UHGV virus genome: UHGV-1461890
Length of the DNA: 41,432 nucleotides
Reading direction: 5' to 3' (one strand)
Source of the DNA: a virus
In this document: piece after piece, positions 4,022 through 36,561 of the stretch
Numbering within the stretch: position 1 is the first letter of the stretch
Layout of the letters: each line of letters begins with the position of its first letter
The notes under the pieces: model-generated
Database searches by the model: none
Told to the model about the DNA's origin: nothing
Seen by the model: the letters and a program-made list of their open reading frames with translations, nothing else
Position numbers and translations under genes: made by a program

Positions 4022-5480
4022 CGTTATTTGGTCACCTCAGCCAAGGCAGTTAGAGTTTATGATGCGCCCTGAAAACGAAGCCTTATATGGTGGAGCTGCC
4101 GGTGGTGGTAAATCTGATGCTTTGGTGATTGAAGCCACAAGGCAAGTACACATACCTCATTACAAGGCATTGATACTTCGTAAGACATATCCTCAGTTGA
4201 CCGAACTGATTGAAAAGTCATTAAGATATTATCCATTGGCATTTCCAAAAGCACGATACAATGCATCTGAACACACATGGTACTTCCCAAGTGGCGCAAA
4301 GATAGTATTTGGCTCAATGCAGCATAGCAAGGATAAATTAAACTATCAAGGAAAAGCGTATGATTTCGTCGCATTTGACGAATTAACGCATTTTACCTAT
4401 GAGGAATATATATATCTTTCTTCTCGTAACAGAGCAAATGGGCCGGGGACAAGGGTGTATATGAGAGCAACCGCTAACCCCGGTGGTATCGGACATGGTT
4501 GGGTTAAGGAAAGATTTATAACTGCTGCCGAGCCTATGACTACCATTTGGGAATCAGTTAAGGTTGAACACGAAGGCAAAGTTGAAGAGAGACACCGTTC
4601 GAGAATATTTGTTCCCTCTTCTGTGTTTGATAACAAGATACTTCTTGAGAATGACCCTGATTATCTAACAAGACTTGCATCTATGCCCGAAGCTGAAAGA
4701 AAAGCCTTACTCTATGGTGATTGGGATAGTTACTCAGGACAGTATTTTGCCGAATGGAGAGATAAACCCGAACATTATGACGATAGACAATGGACTCATG
4801 TTATCAATCCATTTAAGATACCTGACCATTGGAAGATATATCGCTCATTTGACTGGGGTTATAACAAACCATTCTCATGTGGTTGGTGGGCCATAGATAC
4901 AGATGGTGTTGCCTACCGTATCCTTGAGTTATATGGATGTACTCAGACCGCTAACGAAGGTCTTAAATGGACAGCAAAGCAGGTATTTGAAGAGATACAT
5001 CGTATAGAGACCGAACACGAATGGCTTAAAGGCAAACGCATTAACGGAGTAGCCGACCCTGCTATATTCTCTGCCGATGGTGGTGAATCAATAGCAGAAT
5101 CAGCTCAAAAGTGCAGAGTTTACTTTACACCGGGTGACCATCAGCGAATACCGGGATGGATGCAGATGCATTATAGGTTAGCATTTGATGAGAATGGATA
5201 CCCGATGATGTATATATTCAAAAACTGCAAAGCATTTATAAGAACGGTACCTACATTGATATACGATGACCACAAGGTAGAGGACCTCAATACAGAGGGT
5301 GAGGACCATATTGCTGACGAAACAAGGTACTTCTGTATGAGTAGACCAATTAAACCGAGGAATGCAAACAAGCCTGATGATTATACAGGCAAGAATCCTC
5401 TCAACATATTCCTTGATATACCTAAAGAGGATATTAAAACAGTTTCTCGTAGACCAACAATAATAATTAACGGAGGATAG
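4014..5480 (+). CDS. terL: terminase large subunit
   Basis: 488 aa with Walker A LYGGAAGGGKSDA near the N-terminus and a C-terminal nuclease-like region with acidic residues. Position between TerS and portal fits the call. Confidence 0.9.
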   Translation: MNNVIWSPQPRQLEFMMRPENEALYGGAAGGGKSDALVIEATRQVHIPHYKALILRKTYPQLTELIEKSLRYYPLAFPKARYNASEHTWYFPSGAKIVFGSMQHSKDKLNYQGKAYDFVAFDELTHFTYEEYIYLSSRNRANGPGTRVYMRATANPGGIGHGWVKERFITAAEPMTTIWESVKVEHEGKVEERHRSRIFVPSSVFDNKILLENDPDYLTRLASMPEAERKALLYGDWDSYSGQYFAEWRDKPEHYDDRQWTHVINPFKIPDHWKIYRSFDWGYNKPFSCGWWAIDTDGVAYRILELYGCTQTANEGLKWTAKQVFEEIHRIETEHEWLKGKRINGVADPAIFSADGGESIAESAQKCRVYFTPGDHQRIPGWMQMHYRLAFDENGYPMMYIFKNCKAFIRTVPTLIYDDHKVEDLNTEGEDHIADETRYFCMSRPIKPRNANKPDDYTGKNPLNIFLDIPKEDIKTVSRRPTIIINGG

Positions 5481-5481
5481 T

Positions 5482-7485
5482 ATGGCTTTATTTAATCGTA
5501 AAAATAAAGGCGAAGAGGCACAGAAGCAGCCTACCAATGAAGAGCAAATGCTCCTGAGACAGTCTGCACCTCAGCCTACTGCCGAAGAAGAGGCTATGAG
5601 GCTAAGGCAAGGCAAGGCTCCTGATGGGAGTATAGATGGCCTTAAAGCACTTGCTCAGGTGATTGGTAGGGAACAGGTACAAAAGGCATATCAGACTCTT
5701 CTCAAGTACAAGGAAGGCAAAGCCAACCTAGAAAAGAGAATAGTTGAGAATGAACAATGGTACAAGCTCAGGCATTGGGAGTGTATGAGAAAGCAAGAGA
5801 GTGAGGTACAGCCTGTATCAGCTTGGTTATTTAACAGTATAGCCAACAAACACGCTGATGCTATGGATAACTTCCCATCACCTAATGTGCTTCCTCGTGA
5901 AGAAGGAGACAAGGCTGAAGCTGAAATGCTTACCTCTATCCTTCCTGTAGTTCTCGACCAGAACGAGTTTGAGCAGACCTATAGTGATGTATGGGATTAC
6001 AAGCTCAAGACAGGTACAGGCGTATATGGTGTCTTTTGGGATAGTTCTAAGCTTAATGGTCTTGGTGATATAGCAATCAAGAAGATTGACCTTATAAATC
6101 TATTCTGGGAGTCAGGCATTACTGATATCCAAAGGTCACGAAACATATTCCATGTAGAACTTGCAGACAATGACATTCTTGTTCAGACATATCCCCAACT
6201 TGCAGGTAAACTTGGAACATCAACCTTAGACCTTAGCAAGTATGTATATGACGATACCGTTGATACCACCGACAAATCGGCTGTTATAGATTGGTACTAC
6301 AAAAAGAATCAGAATGGTAAAAATGTTCTTCATTATTGCAAGTTCGTAAACGATGAGGTACTATTCGCTACCGAAAACGAGCCAAACTTCACCGAAAGAG
6401 GCTGGTATGACCATGGCGAGTATCCGTTTGTATTTGACGTGTTGTTCTCGGTTGCAGGTACTCCTGCCGGATTTGGTTATATAGACGTTGGCAAGGATGC
6501 TCAAGCATACATAGACCGAGGTAGTCAGGCAATTATGAAAAATATGTTAGCCAATGCAGCACCTCGTCACTTTGTCCGTCAGGATGGTGGTGTAAATGAG
6601 GACGAATACACCGACCTCAGCAAAGATTTAGTTCATGTAGATGGCAACCTTGGTCAAGACAGCATTATGGCTATTCAGGGTAAGCCTCTCAGCAATATCT
6701 ATTTGCAGATATTGCATGACAAGATAGATGAACTGAAGGAAACCACAGGAAACCGAGATGTATCTAACGGTGGTACAACATCAGGTGCTACTGCCGCTTC
6801 TGCCATAGCAGCTATGCAAGAGGCAGGCTCTAAGTTATCTAGAGATGCTAATAAATCTGCATATCGTTCATTCAGGAAGCTTTGCCTATTGTCTATTGAG
6901 CTTATCAGACAGTTCTATGACCTACCAAGATGCTTCAGAATCATGGGTGAGAATGGCACAGCAAGATATGTTCAGTATAGCAATGCAGGGATAGCTCCTC
7001 AATCTCAGGGCACAGAGTTTGGTACTGATATGGGATTCAGGATTCCCCTGTTTGATATAGAGGTTACTGCTCAAAAGCAATCACCTTACTCAAAGATGTC
7101 GCAAAATGAACTTGCTTTGCAGTTCTTCGGAGCAGGCTTTTTTAATCCTCAGATAGCAGACCAAGCACTCGCCTGTCTTGACATGATGGACTTTGACAGA
7201 AAAGAGTTCATTATGCAAAAGATTGCTCAAAATGGCGGTATGTATCAGCAGATGATGGCTATGCAGCAACAGATGATAATGTTAGCAAAAATGGTAGACC
7301 AAGCAAGAGGAAGCAATATAGCCGAACAGTTAATGGCTCAATTCTCAGGACAGGCACCTGTACAAGCTATTGATGGTAATGCTCCTAATGTATCGGATAA
7401 AGAGGCATTGGGTGGTGATGGTGGAGAAGCCTCCACAACCAAGAAGGCAAGACAGCGAGTGGTTGAGTCTACTGACCCGACATAG
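5482..7485 (+). CDS. portal protein
   Basis: 667-aa ORF directly after terL with RBS GGAGGA. Call rests on size, position and a Gln/Met-rich C-terminal tail; similarity is not verified. Confidence 0.7.
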   Translation: MALFNRKNKGEEAQKQPTNEEQMLLRQSAPQPTAEEEAMRLRQGKAPDGSIDGLKALAQVIGREQVQKAYQTLLKYKEGKANLEKRIVENEQWYKLRHWECMRKQESEVQPVSAWLFNSIANKHADAMDNFPSPNVLPREEGDKAEAEMLTSILPVVLDQNEFEQTYSDVWDYKLKTGTGVYGVFWDSSKLNGLGDIAIKKIDLINLFWESGITDIQRSRNIFHVELADNDILVQTYPQLAGKLGTSTLDLSKYVYDDTVDTTDKSAVIDWYYKKNQNGKNVLHYCKFVNDEVLFATENEPNFTERGWYDHGEYPFVFDVLFSVAGTPAGFGYIDVGKDAQAYIDRGSQAIMKNMLANAAPRHFVRQDGGVNEDEYTDLSKDLVHVDGNLGQDSIMAIQGKPLSNIYLQILHDKIDELKETTGNRDVSNGGTTSGATAASAIAAMQEAGSKLSRDANKSAYRSFRKLCLLSIELIRQFYDLPRCFRIMGENGTARYVQYSNAGIAPQSQGTEFGTDMGFRIPLFDIEVTAQKQSPYSKMSQNELALQFFGAGFFNPQIADQALACLDMMDFDRKEFIMQKIAQNGGMYQQMMAMQQQMIMLAKMVDQARGSNIAEQLMAQFSGQAPVQAIDGNAPNVSDKEALGGDGGEASTTKKARQRVVESTDPT

Positions 7486-31182: not shown

Positions 31183-31893
31183 ATGTTCAAACTCGCATTG
31201 AATTCAGGACATTATAAAGAAACGGCAGGTAAACGATGCCTTAAAAAACTTGATAAGAACGAGACAAGAGAATGGGTGCTGAATGACCGAATCTGTGATA
31301 AGATTGAACAAAAGTTAAAAGACTATGAAGGATATCAACTTTTGAGAATTGACGATACAACCGGAAGCACCGATGTATCCCTTGCCAATAGAGTGACTAA
31401 AGCAAACTCTTGGGGTGCTGACTTCTATCTTTCTATTCACCATAACGCAGGTATCAATGGTGGCACAGGCGGTGGTGTAATGGCATATACATATACCAAA
31501 GTTGATGAAATTACAAAGGCTTGGCAGAAGGAACTGTATAATGCAATCATCAAGAACACAGGATTAAAGGGTAATCGTTCTACTCCCCTTGCTTCTGCAA
31601 ATCTTTACGAATGCAGAAAGACAAGTATGCCATGTGTACTCCTTGAATGTGGCTTTATGGACTCCGCAACAGATGTTCCGGTCATCCTTACCGATGACTT
31701 TGCGGACAAGGTTGCATCCGCTTGTGTCTCTGTAATTGTCTCTAAGGGCGGTTTAACTAAAAAGAAGGTAGAAGAGCCTACCACATCAAAAGTCCTTTAC
31801 AGAGTGCAAACAGGAGCATTTTTTGATAAGGCTAACGCAGTTGAGCTTGTAAACAAGTTAAAGAAAGACGGTTACGATGCAATAATCGTATAA
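31183..31893 (+). CDS. endolysin: N-acetylmuramoyl-L-alanine amidase (Amidase_3 type) with C-terminal SPOR domain
   Basis: LSIHHNAG and VLLECGFMDSATD fit MurNAc-LAA motifs. C-terminal YRVQTGAFFDKANAVELVNKLKKDGYDAIIV matches the SPOR repeat consensus. Confidence 0.8.
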   Translation: MFKLALNSGHYKETAGKRCLKKLDKNETREWVLNDRICDKIEQKLKDYEGYQLLRIDDTTGSTDVSLANRVTKANSWGADFYLSIHHNAGINGGTGGGVMAYTYTKVDEITKAWQKELYNAIIKNTGLKGNRSTPLASANLYECRKTSMPCVLLECGFMDSATDVPVILTDDFADKVASACVSVIVSKGGLTKKKVEEPTTSKVLYRVQTGAFFDKANAVELVNKLKKDGYDAIIV

Positions 31894-31897
31894 AAAA

Positions 31898-31928
31898 ATA
31901 GAGTCTCCTTTGCGGAGGCTCTATTTTA
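31898..31928 (+). terminator. rho-independent terminator after the lysis cassette
   Basis: ATAGAGTCTCC-TTTGC-GGAGGCTCTAT followed by TTTT. Confidence 0.65.
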
Positions 31929-31945
31929 CTTATGTATTGATATAG

Positions 31946-31974
31946 TTGACAAATAAAGGAAAATGTGTTAAACT
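31946..31974 (+). promoter_or_regulatory. near-consensus sigma-A type promoter (TTGACA-17 nt-TAAACT, with TGT upstream of the -10)
   Basis: Read directly from the sequence. No protein-coding gene follows; only a ~75-nt region that ends at the terminator at 32018. Confidence 0.45.
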
Positions 31975-32017
31975 AACTACACAACAAATGAGATGTTTTA
32001 ACACATCTTCCAAGAAA

Positions 32018-32056
32018 AATCTTATGATTTACGGCAATAAATCATAAGATTTTTTA
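32018..32056. terminator. bidirectional hairpin terminator with a perfect 13-bp stem (AATCTTATGATTT / AAATCATAAGATT)
   Basis: T-run on the + strand (TTTTTTATTT) and A-run upstream, i.e. a T-run on the minus strand. Likely terminates int transcription and any transcript from the 31946 promoter. Confidence 0.65.
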
Positions 32057-32064
32057 TTTAATTA

Positions 32065-32110
32065 TTATCATAAAAAACAATTAGGTGGACCTTATTGAAT
32101 TTTATGATAA
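32065..32110. other. candidate attP core for the serine integrase: 46-bp imperfect palindrome with perfect 11-bp arms
   Basis: TTATCATAAAA-N24-TTTTATGATAA. The 24-bp centre AACAATTAGGTG|GACCTTATTGAA is itself 8/12 symmetric. The right arm ends exactly at the int stop codon. Confidence 0.45.
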
Positions 32111-33607
32111 CTAAATATCGTGAAAATAAATAGCTAAATTGCCTTTAGCCTTTTCAAATACAACCTTTTCAATTATTGTGCGTAACGCTTCATTCTTAGC
32201 CCGAGGTGTTACATCTTCCCTTTTTATGAACTCAAGTATGCCTACAACCTTTTCAGAGAAGGCATCTATGTCAATATCCTTAACTATGACCTTATCCCTA
32301 TCCTGCTTTAATTTCTCAATCTTAGTGGTTATTTCAGCCTTATTATTACCATACTGTTCAATGGTATCAATTTCGGCAAGGTAAGCCTCCTTTGCTCTTT
32401 CAAGCCTTCTTTCCTCTAAGGCTATGAGCTTATCATAGTCTATGGTAGGCTTTTCAGTTTGCTTAGGTGCTTTGGGTGTGATGTTAAATTGTTGGCTTCC
32501 TATGGCCTGTTCTAAACCTTTAATAAAGGCGCTTTCTAATTTAATCATACTGATAGAGTGAGATGTGTGACAAGAGCCTCTTGAATAGTTGCAACATTGT
32601 AAGGAGTGTGTTTTTTTCTTTGCAGCAAGATTCCTTGTTCCGTTATAAGCAAGTGTCGCTCCACAAGCACTACATCTAACAAGCCCTTTAAGGATATAAT
32701 CAATAGGTTGCTGCCTCCGAGCATGTTTAGAATACAACAATTTCATAGTTTGCAATCTTTCCTGAACCTTATCCCACAGTTCCATTGATATAAGTGGTTG
32801 CCAATTACCATCAATAATTTGGATGTTTTCATTGAGATAATCCCTTTTACTTACTACCTTTGAACCATCAGGTGTCCATCTGATTTTACCTATATAAGCA
32901 GGATTCCATAAAATATACTCTATCCACCTATTATCAGGTATATTACCTCTTTTGGTACGAACTCCTCTCTGCCCGAGCGAAATTGTAATTTCTCTCATAC
33001 CTTCACCATCAGCAAACCTTTGAAATATTTCTTTGATAACATCGGCAGCACCGCTTTCTACATCGGGAAGATAGGTTTTATCACCATTTATGTATCCAAA
33101 AGGAGCAAATACAGCAGGCTCTCCTCTGCTTACCTTTTCTTCCATGCCTCTTGATACTTCAGCGCCGAGGTTGATAAGGTAAAATTCATCCATCCATTCT
33201 ATAATTCTCTCCATGAGGCTTCCAAAAGGACCTTCAGGTATAGGCTCTGATACAGATTTAACCGATATGCCTATCTTTTGAAGCAAGTTTTTATATACTA
33301 TACTTTGCTCTTGGTTTCTTGCAAAACGAGATAACTTCCACACATATATAATATCAAAGGGATGATTTTTCTCCTTTGCCATGGCTATCATCAAGTTAAA
33401 GTTATCTCTTTTCTTTACGCTCTTTCCTGAGATACCATCATCATAAAATACATACTCATCAGGGATTAAATAACCTTCCCTTGCTGCAAATTCTCTGATT
33501 TTTTTGAGCTGAGAATCAGGACTGTATTCATCTTGCCTTTCATCCGATACACGAACATAGGCAGCTCCTATTTTTAATAATTCGTTTTCCACTTTATCAC
33601 TCCTCAT
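32111..33607 (-). CDS. int: large serine recombinase (integrase)
   Basis: 498 aa. The N-terminal resolvase catalytic domain carries the YVRVSDERQ serine motif. A recombinase domain, a zinc-ribbon C-x2-C...C motif and a C-terminal coiled coil follow. Confidence 0.9.
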   Translation of the reverse strand: MRSDKVENELLKIGAAYVRVSDERQDEYSPDSQLKKIREFAAREGYLIPDEYVFYDDGISGKSVKKRDNFNLMIAMAKEKNHPFDIIYVWKLSRFARNQEQSIVYKNLLQKIGISVKSVSEPIPEGPFGSLMERIIEWMDEFYLINLGAEVSRGMEEKVSRGEPAVFAPFGYINGDKTYLPDVESGAADVIKEIFQRFADGEGMREITISLGQRGVRTKRGNIPDNRWIEYILWNPAYIGKIRWTPDGSKVVSKRDYLNENIQIIDGNWQPLISMELWDKVQERLQTMKLLYSKHARRQQPIDYILKGLVRCSACGATLAYNGTRNLAAKKKTHSLQCCNYSRGSCHTSHSISMIKLESAFIKGLEQAIGSQQFNITPKAPKQTEKPTIDYDKLIALEERRLERAKEAYLAEIDTIEQYGNNKAEITTKIEKLKQDRDKVIVKDIDIDAFSEKVVGILEFIKREDVTPRAKNEALRTIIEKVVFEKAKGNLAIYFHDI

Positions 33608-33839
33608 CTATTTCATCTTCAAAATCTTCAGCACAATATTCACATACTGTTCTACCATCTTTTAAGTGAAAAAACTCAACATAGTCATAAGACCAATACT
33701 CGTTACATTCCTCGCATAAAAAATAGTTTTCATCTAAGCATTTCTTACACAGGTGATTTTTCTCGTCAGCAATAACCAAATCACAGTTTTCAGTTCCACA
33801 CTCAGTACAAGTGCCGGTATATTCTCTTGAAGTGTTCAT
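33597..33839 (-). CDS. small acidic zinc-ribbon protein co-transcribed with int
   Basis: 80 aa with four C-x2-C pairs and a DEIDEE tail; its stop overlaps the int start. Confidence 0.5.
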   Translation of the reverse strand: MNTSREYTGTCTECGTENCDLVIADEKNHLCKKCLDENYFLCEECNEYWSYDYVEFFHLKDGRTVCEYCAEDFEDEIDEE

Positions 33840-33854
33840 AGTTCACCTGCTTTC

Positions 33855-34430
33855 TTAATCGTCTTTTATAAAGTGATTAAAAACTAAGTAAAAAAATAAT
33901 ATTACTATTCCTACTAAAAAGAAAATTTTTGTTAATATTCCTGAGTAAGAATCCATAACGATATTTCCTATTACATCAATCCACAATAACAACAAAAAAT
34001 ATCCAACAACTTTTAATAAATCTTTATTTTGCAATATTTTTTTTAAAACACTTGTTATTTTATCTTTTATACAAAAATTTGTAATCTTACTTTCGCCATA
34101 TAACACTCGGCGGTGAATCTTTTGAAAAAGCTTAGATTGCTCCATTTCTTCTAATTTTACTTCTAACTGTTTAATCTCTTTATCTAAAGCAGAATCTAAA
34201 GCAACTCTACTTTTTACAATATCAATTGTTTTTTGAGAATGTTGTGTATAGCTAATATTGCGAAAAAGACCAGTATATTCTCTTTTTTTATACTCTGCAT
34301 TTAAAAGTTCGTGATATACATCCTGATATTTTTTATAAGCAGCCTTTTCGTTATCATTTTTTAAATAGTCTTCAACATTAGTAAAACGAAAAAATTCTTG
34401 TATATCATCGATGTCAATTCTTTCACTCAT
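33855..34430 (-). CDS. membrane protein (C-terminal double TM), candidate superinfection-exclusion / abortive-infection factor
   Basis: 191 aa with a soluble N-terminal domain and two C-terminal hydrophobic helices; encoded in the lysogeny operon. Confidence 0.5.
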   Translation of the reverse strand: MSERIDIDDIQEFFRFTNVEDYLKNDNEKAAYKKYQDVYHELLNAEYKKREYTGLFRNISYTQHSQKTIDIVKSRVALDSALDKEIKQLEVKLEEMEQSKLFQKIHRRVLYGESKITNFCIKDKITSVLKKILQNKDLLKVVGYFLLLLWIDVIGNIVMDSYSGILTKIFFLVGIVILFFYLVFNHFIKDD

Positions 34431-34440
34431 AATAATTCCC

Positions 34441-34866
34441 CTAATCGTTTTTCTTCATGTAATAGTTATGCAAAGATATAATCTCTTCTTTATGGTCGAG
34501 TTTTAACCGTAATATGTCATTTTCGGATGTTAGCACTCCAACTTTGTCCTTAAGCATGACATTCTCAGCGGTTAAAAGTACAAGTTCGCTGCTGAGCCTT
34601 TCAACTTCAGCAGTAAGTTTGTCAACTTCTTCGTGCAGCATAGTGTAATTTTTACTGCCGATAACCACATTACTCTCGGCAAATAATTCGCCCATAGATA
34701 TGCCAAGAACGTCTGCAATTCGGTGAAGAGTAATAGCTTGTGGAGAGGGCGTTTCACCTGAAAAGATACGAGATACGGTCCTTTCGGGGAATTTTGACTC
34801 TTGAGCGATATATTTATAAGTATAACCAAGTTCTTTTCGTCTTTCTCTTATAATGTCAAGCCACAT
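34441..34866 (-). CDS. XRE-family HTH regulator with C-terminal leucine-zipper-like coiled coil
   Basis: 141 aa with an N-terminal HTH (YIAQESKFPERTVSRIFSG...ITLHRIADVLGISMGELF) and a C-terminal LxxLxxL heptad region. Confidence 0.65.
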   Translation of the reverse strand: MWLDIIRERRKELGYTYKYIAQESKFPERTVSRIFSGETPSPQAITLHRIADVLGISMGELFAESNVVIGSKNYTMLHEEVDKLTAEVERLSSELVLLTAENVMLKDKVGVLTSENDILRLKLDHKEEIISLHNYYMKKND

Positions 34867-34882
34867 ATTGATGTCCTTTCAG

Positions 34883-34916
34883 TAGTCAAATTTGGGTATG
34901 GATTAGTCAAAAATGG
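34883..34916. promoter_or_regulatory. direct repeat TAGTCAAAWWTGG x2 upstream of the HTH-coiled-coil gene
   Basis: Copies at 34883-34895 and 34904-34916. On the minus strand each contains a TTGACT -35-like hexamer. Confidence 0.35.
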
Positions 34917-34977
34917 ACATTGAAAATCAGCTTAAAATATTTTACAATTTGCCCAACAAAAAACCAATCAGAATAAA

Positions 34978-35007
34978 TTGACAATTTCGACAAATAAATG
35001 TTAAAAT
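34978..35007 (+). promoter_or_regulatory. plus-strand promoter-like element TTGACAATTTCGACAAATAAATG-TTAAAAT
   Basis: TTGACA at 34978-83, 17-nt spacer, then -10 TTAAAA/TAAAAT. The -35/spacer string closely resembles the cro promoter at 35736 (TTGACATTTCGACAAAAA). Confidence 0.4.
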
Positions 35008-35203
35008 AAATTAAGAACATTTGTTCGAAAAGTCCGTTTTTTTGTACATTGATTTTTGTATTATTAAATTATAACCGAAATATTCACCTTATTTATATGT
35101 TTTTCGGAAGGGGTATCATCAATGTCAAACAATCTTATAGAACTTCTAAGTATTATTCTTGAAAGCGGTAACCCGGAACAAGCAGTTCATACCGTAGCCA
35201 ATG

Positions 35204-35620
35204 TTATTTTTGGTCATTCATCTCAGCACGAATCGCACCGAGAAGAAATCTCTGTGTGTCAGGAGACATTTTGTCAAACGAAAGTGCCACCTCGATAAGA
35301 AGTTTTTTCGCATCGTCAGAAAGTAGACGGTATAATTCTAACCATTTCCTCTCACCCTCGGTAAGCTCCTGCTTGTCGGGGGATTGTGTTTCTTTCTCCA
35401 TTGGAACATCATATCCCATTAACCATGCCTCGCTGACATCTAAGGCGTTTGCAATAAGAAATATCCTGTCCTGCTTAGGCTCAAACGCACCACTTATATA
35501 TTGACTTATAGCGCTTTTAGGTATTCCTGTAAGAGTACAAAGGTCAGATTGTTTCATATTTCTTATGGATAATGCCCTTGATATTCTTTTAGCACAGGTC
35601 TCTTTTCCGTTACTCATCAT
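35204..35620 (-). CDS. CI-like XRE-family repressor
   Basis: N-terminal HTH (KRISRALSIRNMKQSDLCTLTGIPKSAISQYISG). Transcribed divergently from the cro-like gene. RBS GAGGTG with ATG at 35620/35617. Confidence 0.65.
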   Translation of the reverse strand: MMSNGKETCAKRISRALSIRNMKQSDLCTLTGIPKSAISQYISGAFEPKQDRIFLIANALDVSEAWLMGYDVPMEKETQSPDKQELTEGERKWLELYRLLSDDAKKLLIEVALSFDKMSPDTQRFLLGAIRAEMNDQK

Positions 35621-35646
35621 TTTCACCTCTTCAATATATTACCATA

Positions 35647-35783
35647 TAAGTTCAGAAAAATCAATACAAAGTTTAGAAAATTGGGGTTTTCAACCGAGAC
35701 AAAATAAAAAAGTTCAGAAAAATTGAAAAAAATACTTGACATTTCGACAAAAAACCGTTAAGATAAGTTCAGAAAATCTGAAC
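35647..35783. promoter_or_regulatory. genetic-switch region with three GTTCAGAAAA(A)T operator repeats, one a perfect palindrome GTTCAG-AAAAT-CTGAAC
   Basis: Copies at 35649-35666, 35712-35728 and 35767-35783, the last palindromic. A related GTTTAGAAAAT sits at 35670. The palindromic copy lies just downstream of the -10 of the rightward promoter. Confidence 0.6.
35736..35764 (+). promoter_or_regulatory. rightward early promoter (TTGACA-17 nt-TAAGAT) for the cro-like gene
   Basis: Read directly from the sequence; the operator palindrome is immediately downstream. Confidence 0.55.
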
Positions 35784-35799
35784 GAGGGAGGTGAAAATA

Positions 35800-36045
35800 A
35801 TGAAAATGAGCGATACAAACGTTAAATTTGATTACTCCAAACTTCTTGGAAAAATCAAAGAAAAAGGCTATATACAAAGTGATATTGCTAAGAAAGTTGG
35901 CATAGGTAAGACAACTTTTAACGAGGTCCTTTCGGGCAAAACTTTTTTAAGGCAGCCAACAATTATTAAGATTTGTGATGTGTTGGAAATAGCATATAAG
36001 GATATACCCTTATATTTTTTTACCCAAAGGGTTCAGGAAAACTAA
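35800..36045 (+). CDS. Cro-like XRE-family HTH protein
   Basis: ATG at 35800 after GGGAGGTG. HTH region YIQSDIAKKVGIGKTTFNEVLSG. Confidence 0.65.
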   Translation: MKMSDTNVKFDYSKLLGKIKEKGYIQSDIAKKVGIGKTTFNEVLSGKTFLRQPTIIKICDVLEIAYKDIPLYFFTQRVQEN

Positions 36046-36105
36046 ACTTTTAAAAACCTAAATGGGTACAAGCTACTCAATCATATTGTATAGAGAGGTG
36101 ATTAT

Positions 36106-36318
36106 ATGCAACGTCAGGAAATCAAAATGGAAGAGGTTAAGGTACATACACCTGACCTTGCAAAAGATAAAAAGAATGAATTAACCGTAACGCTTTTTAT
36201 CGGTGGTCAGCAGGTAGATAGCCTGACTTCCGAACAGAGTGAGCGTATGGCGAAGAGGTTAGGTAAAACAATGAGTCTATTTTACACAGCTCATTCAGAT
36301 GAATATGAAAAAATTTAA
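36106..36318 (+). CDS. hypothetical early protein
   Basis: 70 aa with RBS AGAGAGGTGA. Confidence 0.4.
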   Translation: MQRQEIKMEEVKVHTPDLAKDKKNELTVTLFIGGQQVDSLTSEQSERMAKRLGKTMSLFYTAHSDEYEKI

Positions 36319-36330
36319 GGAGAAAAAACT

Positions 36331-36561
36331 ATGATTATTGAATCTTGGATAGCAGCAATCATTATGATTGCCCTTGCACTTATAGGAATTGTAGCTCTTT
36401 TTATGTCAATAGTAGAAGGCCAAAGGCTCGAAGACGCCAACCACCAGATTAAAAGACTTGAACACGAAAATGGCGAACTGAAGCGCTATATAGCAGTGCA
36501 AAGGACAAAGAACATCATAGGTGTGGCAAATGATTTTAATAACGAAGGGAAGAAAAAGTAA
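36331..36561 (+). CDS. small membrane/coiled-coil protein
   Basis: 76 aa with RBS AAGGAGAAAA; an N-terminal TM helix is followed by a coiled coil. Confidence 0.4.
   Translation: MIIESWIAAIIMIALALIGIVALFMSIVEGQRLEDANHQIKRLEHENGELKRYIAVQRTKNIIGVANDFNNEGKKK

Follow-up and report, generated by a model that had tools for sequence, protein, structure and literature searches.

A probable mosaic lysogeny operon with a conserved third regulator and exchangeable cargo genes in virus genome UHGV-1461890

Do three small genes that lie between the repressor gene and the integrase gene of a temperate phage work together, or do they share little more than a position? We asked this of the virus genome UHGV-1461890, which was analyzed as one stretch of 41,432 nucleotides (here called the window) and which represents a ~41-kb temperate siphophage-like genome with a GC content of 38.5% and its lysogeny genes on the minus strand. 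Along that strand, a CI-like helix-turn-helix (HTH) gene is followed by a 337-nt gap, by open reading frames (ORFs) of 141, 191, and 80 amino acids (aa), and by the gene for a large serine integrase. The original prediction described the three ORFs as a regulator with an HTH domain and a leucine zipper, a membrane protein with a C-terminal transmembrane hairpin, and an acidic protein with CxxC motifs, and proposed that they may form one coherent defense or exclusion module. The ORF coordinates, the strand, and the anatomy of the proteins were borne out by the ORF calls, an HTH_3 match, the leucine heptads, and AlphaFold2 (AF2) models. The coherent module was not, as the three genes assort independently among relatives. 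A mosaic lysogeny operon, in which a conserved third regulator is followed by exchangeable cargo, is the best explanation of the region and, in our judgment, a probable one.

All three ORFs are real genes; each has conserved homologs and each is preceded by a Shine-Dalgarno sequence. The regulator and both cargo genes belong to uncharacterized families. We compared their genomic contexts across about 100 related loci (numbered with the prefix L). In L001 to L004, a CI gene is followed by a membrane-anchored variant of the HTH protein, a homolog of the 191-aa membrane protein, and a tyrosine integrase, and the zinc gene is absent. In L005 and L006, the order is CI, membrane gene, zinc gene, and serine integrase, and it is the regulator that is absent. 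L007 to L010 carry CI, an unrelated 249-aa protein with a C-terminal anchor, the zinc gene, and a serine integrase. Four loci (L013, L015, L020, and L034) have CI, the regulator, and an integrase with nothing in the slot between the last two, and in L011 two other genes follow the regulator. The contexts of relatives show that the genes assort independently, and the comparison indicates that the trio is not a unit. Base composition also sets one of the genes apart: the membrane gene has 24.8% GC and 17.7% GC at third codon positions, compared to 38.5% for the genome, which is a strong signature of foreign DNA and marks it as acquired cargo. The GC content of the zinc gene (34.6%) is only mildly low. 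Of the features expected of a moron, variable presence among related phages was found, and atypical base composition was found for the membrane gene. The region would be composed of a conserved regulator and two unrelated cargo genes acquired horizontally.

The regulator is the constant part of this arrangement. The 141-aa protein has an XRE-type HTH domain (HTH_3 in Pfam; E = 2e-10), and residues 78 to 126 form six heptads with leucine at every d position (L84, L91, L98, L105, L112, and L119) and asparagine at two a positions (N102 and N116), the sequence pattern of a classical parallel-dimer leucine zipper. Homologs of the regulator fall into more than 655 clusters with 60 to 78% identity across the full length. 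In a scan limited to one genome per species, the regulator was found in 28 contigs, whose hosts were uncultured Clostridia known from metagenome-assembled genomes (MAGs; Oscillospiraceae, Acutalibacteraceae, Eubacteriales, and Christensenellaceae), with the exception of 1 contig binned as an uncultured Bacteroidales MAG. Every regulator-bearing related locus that we examined, in MAG, metagenomic, and viral contigs, kept the regulator downstream of CI and upstream of the integrase, with or without cargo in between. The full constant order is a cro gene pointing away, the CI gene, a small ORF on the opposite strand at the 3' end of CI, the regulator, 0 to 1.2 kb of variable DNA, and the integrase. 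The integrases beside the regulator are serine recombinases of several clades (22 to 84% identical) or tyrosine recombinases; a contact between the zipper and the coiled coil of serine integrases was considered and rejected, since the regulator also accompanies tyrosine integrases. Further, while the CI proteins of these phages diverge (20 to 63% identity), the HTH of the regulator (PERTVSRIFSGET) is nearly invariant. On this conservation, a large group of phages that infect uncultured gut Clostridia carries the regulator as a core lysogeny gene, and the prediction of a control element in addition to CI and Cro proved genuine. In three loci (L001, positions 5298 to 5816; L049, 1818 to 2306; and L051, 24 to 491), a protein of 155 to 172 aa stands in the place of the regulator and combines a homologous HTH with a coiled coil and a C-terminal transmembrane helix, as a membrane-tethered version of it; in L001, a degenerate copy of the operator motif described below lies upstream.

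Two known systems invite comparison. The regulator had been likened to SinR of Bacillus subtilis, a small XRE regulator that also has a C-terminal oligomerization region. The likeness stands for the HTH domain, for which SinR is the best match among solved structures (E = 1.4e-5), but that match stops at residue 64, and the C-terminal part is a six-heptad leucine zipper rather than the helical hook of SinR and SinI. The NCBIfam model of SlrR scored 17.5 bits on the 141-aa protein, compared to a cut-off of 250, and no SinI-like partner was identified, with the small ORF near CI showing no similarity to CI or to solved structures, so that a relationship of the SinI/SinR type found no support. 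The immR-immA-int operon of ICEBs1 has an XRE regulator at its head and an integrase gene at its end and is presumably autoregulated. The window resembles this arrangement, and the ImmR structure 7t8i was among the weak structure matches to the regulator HTH; it differs in that it has no ImmA-type protease, a separate CI/Cro pair, and exchangeable cargo between regulator and integrase. A literature search for XRE-leucine-zipper regulators in prophage lysogeny modules returned nothing relevant.

A putative operator accompanies the regulator. Almost every copy of the gene is preceded by a conserved tandem repeat with a 21-bp register (CAATACCCAAnTTTGAC), with the consensus CAATACCCAAnTTTGACC ... 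ATACCCAAnTTTATCAC across relatives, where the repeats are placed between a -10-like AAATTATA box and the ribosome-binding site (RBS). With up to 2 mismatches allowed, 28 of 29 related loci have at least one copy of the motif ATACCCAAnTTT on the regulator strand within 150 nt upstream of the gene. This represents a 47-fold enrichment, and copies with zero mismatches are found nowhere else; the tandem repeat upstream of the regulator gene (Table 1) is the sole good match in the 41-kb window. The motif is missing from L044, which has the most divergent regulator homolog, with a different recognition helix. Co-conservation of this kind suggests that the tandem repeats are probably the regulator's own operator. 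An alternative role of the repeats as Xis-like arm sites was rejected, since they lie ~2.8 kb from the likely attP region. A putative promoter of the operon (Table 1) can be read upstream of the repeats, and relatives have an upstream -10-like AAATT(A/G)TA box whose spacing to the repeats is conserved. The repeats therefore lie downstream of the regulator's putative promoter and upstream of its RBS.

Cotranscription of the three genes with int, as the original prediction had it, is plausible from the packing of the genes, although not from the stop/start overlap with int that had been cited for it. The gaps are 10 nt between the regulator and membrane genes and 15 nt between the membrane and zinc genes, and a scan of the window found no terminator-like site on the minus strand from 34866 to 32111. 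The 11-nt overlap between the zinc gene and int arises only if int starts at the ATG at 33607. The alternative GTG at 33592 has a GAGGAG RBS at ideal spacing and gives an N terminus (MENELL) like that of relatives, and it is probably the true start; the reported overlap is probably an artefact of choosing the longest ORF. Packing stays tight with this start, which lies 4 nt past the stop of the zinc gene.

The DNA between the regulator and the integrase behaves as a cargo slot, with a gap length among related loci of 0 to 1,214 nt. About 14 of the 16 occupied slots that we examined have one or more genes for predicted membrane proteins or lipoproteins, and the slot of L047 also holds a lipoprotein. 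This observation agrees with the earlier claim that the membrane gene sits in a position typical of exclusion genes, as does its low GC content. In lactococcal phages, genes between the integrase and the repressor can confer superinfection exclusion, and their products are usually membrane associated (PMC7693887). The slot here shares with the lactococcal and streptococcal superinfection exclusion (Sie) genes (Sie2009 type; orf2 and orf3 of TP901-1; PMC7693887) the interval between repressor and integrase, the lysogeny strand, variation from phage to phage, and mostly membrane-associated products, and by this analogy its occupants fit superinfection exclusion. It differs in that the membrane protein has no sequence or fold similarity to them and combines a C-terminal hairpin anchor with a large cytoplasmic helical domain, and in that the hosts are Clostridia MAGs.

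The AF2 model of the 191-aa protein is all-helical, with helices 136 to 160 and 165 to 188 forming a C-terminal hydrophobic hairpin behind a ~135-aa N-terminal helical domain that is predicted to be cytoplasmic. Only 9 homologs were found among 5.8 billion proteins, and its transmembrane region is related to larger slot proteins of other phages. It had no match in Pfam, PHROGs, NCBIfam, or PADLOC; a Foldseek search of the model against BFVD and a scan of viral contigs with the family returned nothing; and neither the membrane protein nor the zinc protein had a tblastn match in 50,697 phage records. When all three proteins were searched against PADLOC-DB 2.0, only generic HTH matches and one spurious 16.8-bit match to SspC were obtained. 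The claim that the proteins lack a recognizable family signature thus holds for the membrane and zinc proteins and fails for the regulator, with its HTH_3 domain. Because most slot occupants are membrane proteins or lipoproteins, the 191-aa protein, with its hairpin in the membrane and its helical domain in the cytoplasm, would counter incoming phages at the envelope, through superinfection exclusion or abortive infection. Such an envelope-level function is its most likely single role, at somewhat less than an even chance.

Unrelated first genes of the slot share a feature at their junction: the products of the genes in the window (34428-34430), L007 (5237), L011 (5794), and L025 (5914) all start with MSER or MSDR. 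This shared start suggests that the slot may begin with a conserved junction at which recombination exchanges modules. A second small acidic soluble slot protein was seen in L011 (5441 to 5782) and L037 (1999 to 2430); it has 113 aa, an isoelectric point (pI) of 4.05, and the tail EFEDMLVEEE, and its likeness to the zinc protein is limited to charge and the acidic tail.

In the mosaic operon that we favor, the regulator would dimerize through its zipper and bind the tandem 21-bp repeats, and this binding would autoregulate, most likely by repression, a transcript running through the cargo into int. The regulator would hold int and the cargo at a low level that is independent of CI. Several points weigh against this reading. 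The pairing of repeats and regulator is one of co-conservation only, and the covariation of operator variants with HTH variants (L019, L023, and L024 share both) is confounded by relatedness and was not used as evidence. The operon promoter is weak by consensus and fell under the threshold of the promoter scan. The 191-aa protein matches no known Sie, abortive infection, or defense family or fold, and the study of lactococcal phages also reports genes in this position without a detectable phenotype (PMC7693887). Further, the zinc gene adjoins an integrase in about half of its contexts, which leaves room for a link to integration, and the hosts are uncultured.

Upstream of the operon, a strong promoter-like site in the CI-regulator gap lies back-to-back with the operon promoter, with the two -35 boxes 11 bp apart. 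A LexA box lies at its predicted transcription start and is the only exact match in the window to the LexA (Cheo) box consensus GAAC-N4-GTTC (PMC4234289). We searched 29 related loci for this consensus; 9 of the 10 exact boxes fall in the same region, and 15 of the 29 loci have a box there when one mismatch is allowed. The promoter would drive a conserved small ORF downstream of it (Table 1) that is convergent with the CI-like gene, overlaps the 3' end of CI in antisense, and is called as a gene in relatives. Searches with the small ORF gave no family or structure match, and it has no similarity to the CI protein or to solved structures. The promoter is a paralog of the cro promoter: a 45-nt repeat (D1; 34984-35028 versus 35741-35785, 78% identity) covers both, with TTTCGACAA located between the -35 box and the -10 box. 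In many relatives, some of them phages without the zipper regulator, the heptamer TTCGACA occurs at both D1 positions, which suggests that D1 may contain a shared operator for CI or Cro. The intergenic region between cro and CI also has four AAGTTCAGAAAAT-like copies (35648-35785), one of which is a perfect palindrome (GTTCAGA-AAA-TCTGAAC) just downstream of the -10 box of the cro promoter; these copies are probably CI/Cro operators.

LexA-controlled antirepressors are known from coliphage 186 (Tum) and from the Gifsy prophages. The window resembles these examples in having a small gene behind a LexA-box promoter and a phage CI-like repressor without a self-cleavage domain. It differs in that the small ORF has no homology to them and is convergent with and antisense to the repressor gene, and in that the host lineage is Clostridia; antirepressor activity is here only a candidate function. 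By analogy, the LexA-box promoter and the small ORF may represent an SOS-controlled antirepressor or an antisense device, and they are probably part of an extra layer of control.

The proximity of the two promoters raises a different reading of the regulator, in which the HTH-zipper protein would serve as a second repressor of immunity, comparable to Mnt of the phage P22 immI region, with the divergent LexA-box promoter and the small candidate antirepressor behind it, rather than its own operon, as its main target. The back-to-back promoters would favor this, as would the co-occurrence of the small ORF and the regulator in most loci and the placement of the ORF antisense to CI under a LexA box. 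However, the repeats lie downstream of the regulator's own promoter and 55 to 95 bp upstream of the other -35 box, with which they do not overlap, and the small ORF, its promoter, and the LexA box are also found in L005 and L007, which lack the canonical regulator. We regard this reading as unlikely. We see slightly more promise, while still holding it doubtful, in a broader proposal that the regulator with its tandem operator and the LexA-box promoter with the 51-aa ORF antisense to cI together constitute an undescribed second genetic switch across a clade of gut Clostridia phages, loosely like P22 immI. In such a switch, SOS derepression would fire the small ORF, with an antirepressor and antisense transcription into cI as its outputs, and the zipper protein would gate the integrase and the cargo. 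If this were true, the extra control layer would be the real discovery and the two downstream genes would be passengers.

The 80-aa zinc protein had been proposed as a recombination directionality factor (RDF). It has four CxxC motifs, a pI of 4.09, and an acidic tail, with 23 acidic and 6 basic residues. The AF2 model (mean pLDDT, 85) shows two tandem zinc-ribbon-like units (CxxC...CxxC), and its cysteines are invariant in the close and the broad alignments (A1 and A5), the latter being too diverse for use in scanning loci. There are 11 close homologs, and a wider profile search with the module retrieved 424 representatives. The profile also matches 4 to 7 repeats in proteins of 400 to 750 aa, some of them fused to Amidoligase_2 (PF12224), and the best fold matches in BFVD were such phage proteins with tandem arrays (probability about 1; TM score, 0.5 to 0.67). 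Array proteins of this size and copy number were seen in L048 (3546 to 5267, with the array C-terminal), L063 (2756 to 4444), and P0155 to P0193. Unlike them, the 80-aa protein is a stand-alone pair of units with an acidic tail and no enzymatic domain; the comparisons identify it as an independent copy of a module that is widespread among proteins of phages and mobile elements. A Foldseek search of the model against PDB found only nonsignificant LIM, PHD, and RING zinc fingers (E ≥ 0.1), and a sequence profile search of PDB gave nothing below 0.01.

A role as an RDF or another integrase cofactor, translationally coupled to int, would suit the small size of the protein and the place of its gene close to int. 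It lies directly upstream of a serine integrase in the window, L005 and L006, L007 to L010, and L049 and directly upstream of a tyrosine integrase (confirmed by Pfam) in L047, L054, and L061; it is one gene away from int, with the gene order swapped, in L050 and just downstream of a serine integrase in L077. In L077 (4958 to 6306), ORFs of 58 aa, 137 aa (small and resolvase-like), and 91 aa stand in this order between the zinc gene and the lysin gene, and the stretch is a second cargo region near the likely attP. Because known RDFs of large serine integrases share no common fold (PMC12286644, PMC11795197), missing homology is no argument against this role. The zinc protein is likened by size and location to phiC31 gp3, SprB of SPbeta, and Bxb1 gp47, but it is patchy within its integrase clade. 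Among 17 distinct phages with integrases at least 57% identical, only about 5 have the gene, and it is absent from about 12. A single family serving both serine and tyrosine integrases is unlikely, and an RDF coexpressed with int from an operon on the lysogeny side would oppose integration. Moreover, relatives with 50 to 54% identity occur with no integrase nearby: one is inside a Type III restriction operon with the order HTH-Zn-Mod-Res (L017, 3876 to 7794), and another is between a DUF7662 protein and a PD-T4-3 defense gene, next to a mad3/AriA-like ATPase (L018, 597 to 3867). Other relatives adjoin a PIF1 helicase or a DUF4379/REase protein. Adjacency to int is also expected from position alone, since the cargo slot abuts int. 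A role as an RDF is therefore improbable, and a protein-binding accessory or a conflict factor is more likely than an excision factor.

The same contexts bear on the idea of one prophage defense or exclusion module in which a dedicated regulator works with a membrane effector and a zinc-ribbon partner. The genes are adjacent, tightly packed on the same strand with no terminator between them, and placed where exclusion genes are typically found. They nevertheless assort independently: the regulator occurs without either cargo gene in L013, L015, L020, L034, and L069 to L076; the membrane gene occurs without the zinc gene in L001 to L004 and without the regulator in L005 and L006; and the zinc gene occurs without the membrane gene in L007 to L010, L049, and L047. 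The family sizes differ about 60-fold, and PADLOC gave no system match. We consider a single module very improbable. An XRE HTH gene directly upstream of a gene for a small membrane protein is a common toxin-antitoxin layout, which the 10-nt gap between the regulator and membrane genes recalls, but an XRE antitoxin paired with a membrane toxin, as a toxin-antitoxin or abortive infection pair, is the least probable reading of all and was rejected because co-occurrence is not obligate, with the regulator in hundreds of phages that lack the 191-aa protein and the 191-aa protein without the regulator in L005 and L006.

The positions of the features are collected in Table 1. The integrase has the Pfam domains Resolvase, Recombinase, and Zn_ribbon_recom and matches the PHROG integrase family with an E value of 5e-99, and the Cro-like gene is divergent from the CI-like gene, in which the domain search found no peptidase domain. 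Between the end of int and the lysin gene, a symmetrical stem-loop of 14 bp (31895-31927) has an A-run on one side and a T-run on the other; this is probably a terminator that acts in both directions, and attP is probably within 31928-32110. An Rfam scan of 31500-36500 matched no RNA family, and megablast of 32000-36100 against the 50,697 phage records gave no match.

Table 1. Positions in the window of genes and putative control elements of the lysogeny region
Feature	Position	Strand	Basis or detail
Large serine integrase	32111-33607; probable start GTG 33592	-	Pfam, PHROG, alignment A3, RBS reading
Zinc-ribbon gene, cargo gene 2 (80 aa)	33597-33839	-	ORF; alignments A1 and A5; AF2
Membrane-protein gene, cargo gene 1 (191 aa)	33855-34430	-	ORF; AF2 model
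HTH-zipper regulator gene (141 aa)	34441-34866	-	ORF; HTH_3
Tandem direct repeat, 21-bp register (TTTCAATGTCCATTTTTGACTA / AATCCATACCCAAATTTGACTA)	34883-34925	-	Repeat family D4; putative regulator operator
Putative operon promoter, TTGGTT-17 nt-TAAAAT	34939-34967	-	Sequence reading; tentative
Strong promoter-like site, TTGACA-18-TAAAAT, TG-extended	34978-35007	+	11/12 match (promoter scan)
LexA (Cheo) box AGAACATTTGTTCG	35014-35027	.	At predicted transcription start of the 34978-35007 promoter
Conserved small ORF (58 aa here, 51 aa in relatives)	35122-35298	+	Core ELIxxIRENDNPEQAL; RBS GGAAGGGG
CI-like repressor gene	35204-35626	-	HTH_3 / Phage_CI_repr
Cro-like DUF739 HTH gene	35791-36045; promoter 35736-35764	+	Domain search and promoter scan

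Temperate phages that infect uncultured Clostridia of ruminants and the gut have hardly been studied, and this analysis maps their lysogeny module: a fixed CI/Cro pair, a conserved third regulator with a recognizable putative operator, a promoter that carries an SOS box and faces the repressor gene, and a defined cargo slot. The three genes with which we began merit separate treatment rather than treatment as a system, and the zinc gene is a poor bet as an excision factor for the integrase of the window. What gives the locus most of its value is the conserved pair of regulator and putative operator and the small ORF behind the LexA box, rather than the trio itself. For mining candidate exclusion or defense genes, the slot offers a practical starting point, and the regulator together with its putative operator provides a sequence signature for finding such prophages in metagenomes.

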